A stretch of DNA of 32,095 nt from an uncultured Candidatus Saccharibacteria bacterium (GTDB lineage: Bacteria; Patescibacteriota; Minisyncoccia; UBA6257; 2-01-FULL-56-20): the NCBI GenBank assembly GCA_964563735.1, contig CAZLXS010000003.1, forward strand, positions 1 to 32,095, in the 5' to 3' direction. A model generated the notes under the pieces. The model worked only from the letters and a program-made list of their open reading frames with translations. It had not been told where the DNA came from and searched no databases. This document shows positions 17,075 to 17,810 of the stretch, piece by piece. Each line of letters opens with the position of its first letter. The first letter of the stretch is position 1. The translations under genes and the position numbers were made by a program.

Positions 17075-17110
17075 AAAGAGGGTCGATGACTAATGTCATC
17101 GACCCTCTTT
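17075..17110 (-). terminator. Rho-independent terminator (perfect palindrome, potentially bidirectional)
   Basis: AAAGAGGGTCGATGAC / TAAT / GTCATCGACCCTCTTT gives a perfect 16-bp stem and a 4-nt loop. On the minus transcript the stem is followed by UUUUAUU. It lies 53 nt after the Nudix stop codon. Confidence 0.75.
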
Positions 17111-17162
17111 TGTGCTATGAAGCAGATCCGTGAACCTGGATGTACTTATTTAAAATCCCAAT

Positions 17163-17690
17163 TCAATTCCTCCTTCTACCTTCAATCCGAGCCACAATCT
17201 CATGGATTAAGACCCGATGATGTGGCAAGAGATCTGACGGCAGATCATCCAAAGAAAAGAACACACCACTCCCGGTGTACGGACCGACGAGCCAACACGC
17301 ATGGAGCAAGGAGATTTGATGGCGGGCAGGATCCTGACCAGGTCCACTCCCCTTCACGACCTCTATCCACCCCAGAGAGACCGGCTTCGTGACATAACCC
17401 CCATCCAATTCTTCTACACGCAATCGATTGATTGCGTCGGAGACGGTTTCATTCCCCCGAAGAACAGTGCCCGGCATATGGTTGCCTTCATACTCTTCGT
17501 CTCGCCGATAGAATAAGAGGATTTGATCGTTATCAAAAACTGCAAGTTCTATCGGGACCGAAACGGACATGCCGACCAAGGCCCGAAATACATTTGGCTC
17601 AAGTGGCCATCGTGCCCGGCTCAATAACGGAGCAAGCTGCTTGTTTTCTCCATCTGCTAAATCATCGGTCGGACTGTTGCTATCACTCAA
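17163..17690 (-). CDS. Nudix-fold hydrolase, GDP-mannose mannosyl hydrolase (Gmm/NudD/WcaH)-like
   Basis: 175-aa ORF. TTG start at 17690 is preceded by AAGGAGG with 5-nt spacing. Degenerate Nudix box PGTVLRGNETVSDAINRLRVEELDG has Ex7R, RL instead of RE as in NudD, and retains EE. G+C is about 51% by hand count against about 37-39% in the flanks. Confidence 0.6.
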   Translation of the reverse strand: MSDSNSPTDDLADGENKQLAPLLSRARWPLEPNVFRALVGMSVSVPIELAVFDNDQILLFYRRDEEYEGNHMPGTVLRGNETVSDAINRLRVEELDGGYVTKPVSLGWIEVVKGSGPGQDPARHQISLLHACWLVGPYTGSGVFFSLDDLPSDLLPHHRVLIHEIVARIEGRRRN

Positions 17691-17781
17691 ATCTTCCTCC
17701 TTGGTTAGATTTATGGCCAGCTTGAAAGTTGATATTGAATTACTTTTTTAAAAATTAGGATGCGCCTAAAAACTACTTAAT

Positions 17782-17810
17782 ATAATACTGTACTAAATTG
17801 TTTTAGTCAA
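17782..17810 (-). promoter_or_regulatory. Candidate sigma70-type promoter for the Nudix gene
   Basis: Minus strand reads TTGACT (17805-17810), a 17-nt spacer, then TATTAT (17782-17787). It lies about 90 nt upstream of the TTG start and 25 nt after the stop of the upstream gene. Confidence 0.5.

Follow-up and report, generated by a model that had tools for sequence, protein, structure and literature searches.

A Nudix-fold gene within a nucleotide-sugar locus

The window analysed here is a stretch of 32,095 nucleotides (nt) from contig CAZLXS010000003.1 of an uncultured Candidatus Saccharibacteria bacterium (assembly GCA_964563735.1), and our subject is an open reading frame (ORF) on its minus strand, at 17163-17690, which starts with TTG at 17690 and codes for a protein of 175 residues. 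All ORFs of the window but one lie on the minus strand and make up one large nucleotide-sugar/glycosyltransferase locus, with epimerase/dehydratase genes, a GDP-fucose synthase, a C-methyltransferase, a split thiamine-dependent E1-like pair and several glycosyltransferases; no tRNA or rRNA genes were found in the window. The upstream neighbour of the ORF (17835-19091, minus strand) codes for an RfbH/ColD-type nucleoside diphosphate (NDP)-hexose 3-dehydrase of the DegT family, recognized by an SFYASH motif that has His in place of the Schiff-base Lys, and the downstream neighbour (16410-16985, minus strand) is, by profile match, a GmhA-type sedoheptulose-7-phosphate isomerase. As modelled, the ORF is a self-contained Nudix-fold gene of an uncharacterised branch that resembles GDP-mannose mannosyl hydrolase (Gmm) and is found mainly in Patescibacteria. 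Judged by sequence comparison, its high guanine plus cytosine (G+C) content, promoter-like site, Shine-Dalgarno sequence (SD) and terminator-like hairpin recur in relatives, and the gene is thus native to this type of locus and not dropped in from outside the lineage. On balance, we lean towards regarding it as a Gmm-like, regular accessory of Patescibacteria/Parcubacteria deoxy-sugar loci and a predicted NDP-sugar hydrolase.

The AlphaFold2 model obtained with the family alignment (predicted local distance difference test score of 88.8, predicted TM-score of 0.76) consists of two extra N-terminal helices, a Nudix α/β/α core and a long C-terminal helix. Foldseek searches with this model against the PDB gave 237 matches at E ≤ 1e-3, and all 50 that are listed are Nudix-family proteins; the Nudix identity proposed in the initial annotation from the letters alone is thereby supported at the level of fold. 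Homologue searches recovered 15 relatives at 49-64% identity, all metagenomic, of which the named ones belong to Patescibacteria/Minisyncoccia, and an exhaustive profile search recovered 1104 cluster representatives at E ≤ 1e-3, 184 at E ≤ 1e-10 and 27 at E ≤ 1e-30. Among the 150 representatives listed, most are 160-190 residues long and match nearly end to end, and several homologues pass the Pfam NUDIX model (PF00293) or carry precomputed matches to it. The family is real and of moderate size.

The Nudix box of the window protein (...ETVSDAINRLRVEELDG) is degenerate, with RL for RE, as was noticed at the outset. It departs from the canonical GX5EX7REUXEEXGU pattern in reading G-x6-E-x7-R-L-R-V-E-E-L-D-G, where the final Gly is replaced by Asp, and its first Gly is displaced by one residue relative to Gmm. 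The RL pair is invariant among 16 close homologues, and only the second Glu of the EE pair is kept family-wide (consensus R-L-L-x-S-E), the window copy itself retaining both. All close homologues share R62, D64, E66, Y67, R89, E110, R123, H124, H157 and H158, and E48, R62, D64, H71, P73, G74 and E94 are invariant or nearly so across 80 diverse members. These two sets of sequences, the 16 close ones and the 80 diverse ones, were used to build the profiles A1 and A2, respectively.

The gene differs from its surroundings in base composition. The G+C of 17161-17700 is 275/540 (50.9%) and that of the ORF is 51.1%, versus 39.6% for the whole window, 36.7% at 16441-16620 and 39.2% at 18001-18120, values that reproduce the counts first given for the gene (about 51%) and its flanks (about 37% and 39%). 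A sliding G+C profile has its maximum (0.49) over the Nudix gene and rises above 0.47 at two places only, this gene and the left end of the window, where the sole plus-strand gene lies. Against the other 33 window ORFs, the gene has a z-score of 3.9 for G+C and a G+C at third codon positions (GC3) of 50.9% versus a mean of 35.9% (z = 3.2), the adjacent 3-dehydrase gene being at 36.6%. The amino acid composition of the protein alone predicts 46.7% G+C, higher than for any other gene of the contig, and thus accounts for about 7 of the 11.5 excess points (about 60%), the remaining 4.6 or so being due to codon choice (z = 2.7). Two plus-strand antisense ORFs (17093-17392 and 17432-17725) were set aside, the minus-strand frame being the one kept family-wide; GC-rich stretches are expected to hold long antisense ORFs.

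The gene also carries expression signals of its own. An AAGGAGG SD lies at 17696-17702 on the minus strand with a 5-nt spacer to the TTG start, just as first described, whereas the regions upstream of most other contig genes are AT-rich and lack an SD, many of these genes overlapping or abutting the preceding one. A strong SD is likewise present in 11 of the 13 homologue loci examined, as well as in L029 and L030. Further upstream, at 17782-17810 (minus strand), lies a sigma-70-type promoter-like site, TTGACT-17-TATTAT, which would give a leader of about 85 nt if used. This site, put forward initially as a near-consensus promoter, is present at that position but is not above chance when taken alone: a promoter scan found 36 sites in 12 kb versus 32 ± 5.9 in shuffled sequences, five other sites score at least as high, and a shuffle test of the 160 nt upstream is marginal (P ~0.08). 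It becomes credible because the same type of site recurs upstream of homologues, where the best site is TTGAC[A/T/G] followed at 17/18 nt by a -10-like hexamer in 10 of 13 loci (shuffle P ≤ 0.05 in 8 of 13), and L029, the closest homologue, has a perfect TTGACA-16-TATAAT. A riboswitch or other structured leader was considered and rejected, as the leaders of 10 loci, 44 to 124 nt in length, share the SD only; Rfam searches of the window and the leaders gave nothing at gathering scores, with chance-level hairpin matches only at E ≤ 1.

Beyond the stop codon, a terminator-like hairpin occupies 17074-17111 (minus strand), its two 17-nt arms (17074-17090 and 17095-17111) being 100% complementary around a 4-nt loop, TAAT, and it folds at -32.6 kcal/mol (z = -8.2 versus shuffles). 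The hairpin is strong, but it is not the perfect 36-nt palindrome of the initial description, because its loop is not self-complementary; moreover, the run that follows it (UUUUAUUCAU) is interrupted and partly within the stem, and the T-run rule of the scan tool made no terminator call. A hairpin with a T-run is found directly 3′ of the Nudix gene in at least 9 of 13 homologue loci, plus L018, L019, L029 and L030, and the terminators at these homologous positions are clearer than that of the window. Thus, a promoter-like site, an SD and a terminator-like hairpin are indeed present, as had been claimed, and they recur in homologues. The downstream gmhA ORF was listed with an ATG at 17099, within this hairpin; its true start is probably Met39 (ATG at 16985), because the NCBIfam GmhA profiles begin aligning at residues 39-41. 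Between the hairpin and this ATG, a weak TTGAAG-17-TAGTAT site (about 17058-17030, minus strand) has a -10 region like that of the Nudix promoter, forming a direct repeat.

Assembled metatranscriptome contigs cover the Nudix gene at a depth comparable to that of its neighbours. Contigs at 17243-17960, 17509-17913 and 17652-17960 bridge the promoter region into the 3-dehydrase gene, and those at 16205-17191, 16928-17189 and 17002-17159 bridge the hairpin into the GmhA gene. Taken at face value, they suggest read-through at both ends of the Nudix gene and leave no support for the idea that it splits the locus transcriptionally; as they cross the hairpin, either termination is incomplete or there is DNA carry-over, the contigs being unstranded, assembled and possibly inclusive of DNA. 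The promoter-like site that scores highest in the region (TTGACA-18-TATACT, 22868-22839, 11/12) lies before the HddA-like gene, in a 126-nt gap (22808-22933) that also holds a small terminator-like hairpin (22902-22888), and this gap is likely a boundary between transcription units upstream of that gene. Because this stronger promoter-like site precedes the HddA-like gene, the hairpin at 17074-17111 is best read as the end of a HddA...3-dehydrase-Nudix unit with an internal promoter, rather than as the private terminator of an insert.

Homologous loci and the origin of the gene

In most adequately flanked homologue loci a 4,6-dehydratase gene is found near the Nudix gene, and in many a 3-dehydrase gene is found as well. 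In L001 (a Patescibacteria metagenome-assembled genome, MAG), L004-6 (a Minisyncoccia MAG), L007 and the P0009 contig, the Nudix gene is beside, or within 1-2 genes of, a 3-dehydrase and a dehydratase (DegT-family genes of 409-415 residues and dehydratases of 346-363 residues), and the same pair occurs within ~5 kb of it in L022, L024, L025 and L027. In L030, the 3-dehydrase, an RfbH-like gene, is directly upstream of the Nudix gene, with an RmlB-like dehydratase nearby. All these DegT proteins, including that of the window, have SFYASH under a search pattern that allowed Lys or His at that position, and we take them, by knowledge of E1 and ColD, to be 3-dehydrases and not aminotransferases. 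The dehydratase of the loci that bear a 3-dehydrase is RmlB-like, as is the NDP-hexose 4,6-dehydratase of the window (10522-11598, minus strand), which lies 5.6 kb downstream of the Nudix gene and is 61-65% identical to the copies of relatives. A Gmd-type dehydratase adjoins the Nudix gene in L008, L015 and L016 (all three 45-46% identical to E. coli Gmd, that of L008 scoring 419 bits on Pfam GDP_Man_Dehyd), some family members adjoining Gmd without any 3-dehydrase, and in L011 a dehydratase is adjacent to the homologue. Most homologue loci place the Nudix gene beside an RfbH-like 3-dehydrase, a 4,6-dehydratase or both, and the proposal that it was inserted into the locus of the window is accordingly not supported.

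The closest relatives of the window 3-dehydrase are those of L018 (from a MAG named Candidatus Liptonbacteria by one source) and L019, with 70% identity, followed by those of L001, L004, L007, L022, L025, L027 and L030 with 47-61%, and each of these 3-dehydrases is beside or near a Nudix-like gene. In L018 and L019, a 181-residue ORF lies directly downstream of the 3-dehydrase on the same strand; it has an RL-type box, a strong SD, a TTG/GTG start, a GC-rich hairpin with a T-run after the stop and a G+C above that of the locus. Because the same slot, SD, start, hairpin and G+C are seen there, the arrangement of the window is normal for such loci. The Fcl/ColC-like epimerase-reductase of the window (20156-21091, minus strand) is also 59-60% identical to genes of L018 and L019, whose loci thus carry its relatives together with the 3-dehydrase and the Nudix-like slot gene.

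The G+C of the Nudix gene is above that of the rest of its locus in 14 of 16 independent loci, near-duplicate loci being counted once, and by at least 10 points in seven of them. The offsets are +6.5, +3.1, +7.8, +8.3, +1.1, +12.8, +14.0, +5.2, +11.3, -6.2, +12.0, -1.7, +13.6, +4.1, +10.3 and +16.9 points, and the window value of +11.7 is within this range; an excess at the codon level is seen in 11 of 13 homologue loci. The G+C offset is therefore a trait of the family and gives no evidence of a recent event in the window in particular. It may derive from AT-rich sugar genes around a core-like gene, from repeated transfer from GC-richer relatives, or from selection. The Nudix homologues, the adjacent 3-dehydrase and the flanking haloacid dehalogenase (HAD)-type gene all point to Patescibacteria/Parcubacteria: the best matches of the 3-dehydrase (58-70%) have, as lineage-specific names, only Lipton-, Sung-, Taylor- and Nealsonbacteria and Parcubacteria/Paceibacter-type ones, and the only named close relative of the HAD gene is from a Candidatus Paceibacterota MAG (61% identity). 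With homologues that come from the lineage of its neighbours, the same synteny and a G+C deviation typical of the family, the recent acquisition proposed initially is not borne out.

In its strongest form, that proposal would make the gene a recently acquired, self-transcribed, moron-like cassette inserted between the 3-dehydrase and GmhA genes, its G+C inherited from a GC-richer donor, which we consider unlikely. Phage morons are genes flanked by their own promoter and terminator and have a composition unlike that of their neighbours. The window unit shares this form, with its sigma-70-type promoter-like site, single ORF, strong SD, terminator-like hairpin and G+C unlike the flanks, but it lies in no phage context and belongs to a functionally coherent neighbourhood that is conserved across many genomes, with no sign of recent insertion. 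Besides the nature of the RNA contigs noted above, several observations do count against a native origin. The codon usage of the gene is the most atypical among the 34 contig genes (log-likelihood z of -4.1), with the excess from codon choice and the GC3 contrast to the adjacent 3-dehydrase given earlier. The pairings of Nudix and 3-dehydrase are also reassorted: the slot-mates of the closest 3-dehydrases, in L018 and L019, are only 30% identical to the window Nudix protein or undetectable, and the genes to which the latter is 49-60% identical have partner 3-dehydrases that are only 47-61% identical to that of the window, so that some lateral movement within the phylum is possible. One homologue (L013, 2026-3695; 58% identical) lies outside any sugar locus, 12.8 G+C points above its flanks, between an rve-type integrase gene and the gene for ribosomal protein L27, with a HicA toxin gene nearby. 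Lastly, the contig of a close syntenic relative, L017 (ERZ27249449 k141_795108, 42.6 kb), which shares 75-98% identity over 12 of 13 matched window genes, gave no close Nudix match in the homologue search, its equivalent region being unread.

Against an acquired cassette stand the family-wide offset and its largely amino acid-borne origin here, the common phylum-level lineage of homologues and neighbours, and the Nudix-like gene with SD and terminator downstream of the closest 3-dehydrase relatives; as the slot is already filled in these, there was at most a replacement and not an insertion that split the locus. Neither flanking repeats nor a tRNA or integrase gene mark the Nudix unit of the window. 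The repeats tried as insertion scars were only weak AT-rich matches, and a 19-nt inverted pair (17149-17167/17734-17752; 79% complementary) was judged to be due to chance. No strain without the gene and no joints were found in four DNA metagenome runs, in all of which the region is intact, and no near-identical donor was found, the best homologue being 64% identical. The window DNA is present in wastewater, activated-sludge and aquaculture metagenomes and metatranscriptomes. A milder possibility, that a resident slot-mate was replaced by another family member from within the phylum, is about equally doubtful. Still less probable is that the gene is part of a self-transcribed, mostly GC-rich module that moves among Patescibacteria sugar loci, replaces the resident slot-mates of 3-dehydrases and would encode an as yet undescribed activity, a glycosyl-type hydrolase specific for NDP-4-keto-6-deoxy/3,6-dideoxy intermediates that acts as a proof-reading valve on a labile intermediate of the pathway.

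Some further observations concern the homologue loci. In L017, the counterpart (8625-9542) of the epimerase/dehydratase gene at 8686-9621 of the window is only 46% identical to it, amounting to an allelic replacement of a single gene. A second Nudix gene of L019 (within 950-3420) codes for 159 residues with the box RK...GE and scores 64 bits on Pfam NUDIX; it is flanked by a Gmd-like gene, 52% identical to E. coli Gmd, and by an Fcl-like gene, a setting that recalls the gmd-fcl-gmm grouping of E. coli. L001 likewise has a second Nudix gene (1-371) beside an epimerase gene, 40% identical to that of the window over 88 residues. The homologue in L008 (60% identical; on a contig of 4969 bp) was binned to Gammaproteobacteria and that in L011 (40%) to Bacteroidota; the family may extend outside Patescibacteria, or else the binning of these short contigs is wrong.

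Relation to GDP-mannose mannosyl hydrolase and predicted function

A phmmer search of the single window protein against the PDB found nothing, and family profiles were therefore needed. With profile A1, the best PDB match is Gmm (PDB identifier 1RYA; E 3.5e-4), and with A2 Gmm chains are on top (E 2.5e-10); among the top PDB matches, it is the Gmm alignment that extends furthest into the N-terminal extension. Using hhalign, the match to E. coli K-12 Gmm rises from a probability of 77% to 97% with A2 (E 8.6e-11, 109 of ~160 columns). The two proteins are of similar size (160 and 175 residues) and both have the Nudix fold. Their aligned boxes, GRVQKDETLEAAFERLTMAELGL in Gmm and TVLRGNETVSDAINRLRVEELDG in the window protein, reveal that the R-L-T-M-A-E of Gmm shares with the family both the RE to RL change and the retention of only the second Glu of EE, and R36, R64 and E69 of Gmm (RefSeq numbering) align with the conserved R62, R89 and E94 of the window family. 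The genomic setting is comparable in part: gmm follows gmd-fcl, and the nucleotide-sugar locus of the window has a 4,6-dehydratase and an Fcl-like gene in the vicinity of the Nudix gene, alongside the ColD/RfbH-type 3-dehydrase and genes of GDP-heptose type. It has been reported that the GDP-sugar glycosyl hydrolases are set apart by the loss of key Nudix-box residues, which arose more than once, losses being known in Gmm, IDI and MutY-type members (PMC5389931), and that Gmm, with the same degenerate box, is an active enzyme (PMC5389931; PMC10037897). By sequence profile, no characterised protein is thus closer than Gmm/NudD, which also serves best as a functional analogue; the likeness seen in the initial annotation, shared RL included, stands as a resemblance and not as proven membership of the Gmm family.

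In the reading we favour, the predicted hydrolase would act on an NDP-sugar, most likely a GDP-linked one, such as GDP-hexose/GDP-heptose or a 4-keto-6-deoxy or 3,6-dideoxy derivative, and its products, like those of Gmm, would probably be NDP and the free sugar. E94 would bind one Mg2+, and R62 and R89 would contact the diphosphate. Such hydrolysis would trim or proof-read the pool that feeds the 3-dehydrase branch. The promoter of its own would allow the Nudix level to be set independently of the operon, and the hairpin would end the HddA...RfbH-Nudix transcription unit.

A number of results speak against this Gmm-like assignment. The window protein scores 15 bits on PF00293 (cut-off 21.1; E 0.025) and so fails the model, and it matched no NCBIfam model at E ≤ 0.01; across the 80 family members, the Gmm model NF011963 is touched by 13, with a best E of only 3.3e-8, while 17 match the generic Nudix model and 9 match MutT. 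In the A2 search, other Nudix enzymes score near Gmm (2FML, 4.7e-10; a MutT, 2.3e-9). Identity to Gmm is only ~23%, and the alignment ends before its catalytic-base His (His123 in RefSeq numbering), leaving the C-terminal third of Gmm unaligned; the family has no conserved His in that loop. This residue of the C-terminal loop presumably corresponds to the His-124 of literature numbering. The extra N-terminal helices and the long C-terminal helix of the window protein are a further difference from Gmm, as are the usual partners (a 3-dehydrase and an RmlB-like dehydratase in the window family, gmd-fcl for Gmm) and the promoter and terminator that usually attend members of the window family, whereas the neighbours of gmm adjoin or overlap it in the wca cluster. 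That the family has both RmlB-like and Gmd-type partners detracts from any one nucleotide specificity.

The structural ranking differs as well: the first ranks of the Foldseek search are held by CDP-Chase, the Nudix-type regulator AraR and a UDP-X diphosphatase, with Gmm outside the top 50. CDP-Chase (PDB identifiers 3Q4I and 3Q1P) and the S. pneumoniae UDP-X diphosphatase SP_1669 (PDB identifier 4HFQ) match with E values of 9e-8 to 2e-6 and TM-scores of ~0.57-0.59 over 163-186 columns, which is most of the query and reaches beyond the Nudix core. Both are named for their action on nucleoside-diphosphate-X compounds. However, their identity to the window protein is 16-20%, with a root-mean-square deviation of 8-12 Å over the full alignment, and neither is ranked by the sequence-profile search. 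In both, the Nudix box is presumably canonical and the bond that is cleaved is that of the pyrophosphate.

The protein could also be a non-catalytic one, a nucleotide-sugar sensor or an accessory subunit of the 3-dehydrase or 4,6-dehydratase that, for example, channels a labile 4-keto intermediate. The degenerate box, with its RL for RE, its variable first Glu of EE and its shifted initial Gly, would fit such a role, as would the tight conserved adjacency to the 3-dehydrase and the presence of the effector domains of the regulators AraR and NrtR among the best Foldseek matches. Yet the model has no DNA-binding or other extra domain beyond its two short N-terminal helices; E94, R89 and R62, which match metal and phosphate ligands of Gmm, are conserved across the 80 members; the equally degenerate Gmm is active (PMC10037897); and some members adjoin Gmd without any 3-dehydrase, all of which makes a non-catalytic role improbable. 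A general house-cleaning Nudix pyrophosphatase (of the MutT/NTP or NDP-X diphosphatase type) whose position in a sugar locus is incidental is the least probable reading, very improbable even with the near-Gmm scores of 2FML and MutT proteins, the generic Nudix and MutT matches among the 80 members, the lack of sugar genes around L013 and CDP-Chase and UDP-X diphosphatase as top structural neighbours, as the family as a whole lacks the glutamates (that of RE and the first of EE) on which canonical pyrophosphatases depend, and the 4,6-dehydratase found nearby in most adequately flanked loci is unlikely to be incidental.

If the prediction of a Gmm-like hydrolase is true, candidate-phyla bacteria, which have tiny genomes and yet invest heavily in surface glycans, would carry their own family of such enzymes dedicated to deoxy-sugar branches. 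With at least 184 sequence clusters and no characterised member, the family is one in which a single assayed member would annotate all, and the assay would test whether enzymes with an RL-type Nudix box in general attack the sugar carbon and not the phosphorus. The gene also offers a caution for genome scanning, since a gene family can conserve a sharp G+C jump along with a promoter, SD and terminator of its own, and these features together need not mark a recent transfer.

Other genes of the window

The sole plus-strand gene, for a HAD phosphatase (106-852), lies outside the sugar operon. In G+C it ranks second among the contig genes (48.3%, GC3 46.8%); like the Nudix gene, it starts with TTG behind a clear SD (GAGAGGAG), and its orthologue in L017 (9-746) shows the same offset (47.3% versus 41.2%). 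It may be that the sugar genes, rather than the Nudix and HAD genes, are the compositional outliers.

At 30582-31832, a GDP-L-fucose synthase-like gene (453 bits on NF047922, just under the cut-off of 500) is followed by a partial GDP-mannose 4,6-dehydratase gene, the C-terminal part of which runs towards the contig end; this gmd-fcl pair has no adjacent Nudix gene within the window. Two sets of heptose-nucleotide genes (HddA-, HddC-, GmhA- and GmhB-like) are spread over 910-4367, 7664-8650, 16410-17099 and 21088-22807 and comprise two GHMP HddA-like kinases, two SIS/GmhA-like isomerases, one GmhB-like phosphatase, three nucleotidyltransferases and a transaldolase-family gene; the presence of two sets suggests that two distinct heptoses or hexoses are activated. 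With the TTG at 21975 that was listed as its start, the HddC-like ORF shares 176 nt (21800-21975) with the HddA-like gene, and its true start is probably an internal Met, because the nucleotidyltransferase domain begins at residue 71.

The split thiamine diphosphate E1-like α/β pair and a sugar C-methyltransferase are found at 22934-24811 and 27601-28857. Acetolactate-synthase-like thiamine diphosphate enzymes (602-692 residues) also occur within a few genes of the 3-dehydrase or the Nudix gene in L001, L007, L011 and L018. Yersiniose-type pathways provide an analogy for the synthesis of branched-chain dideoxy sugars, and by this analogy loci of the window type may make such sugars.

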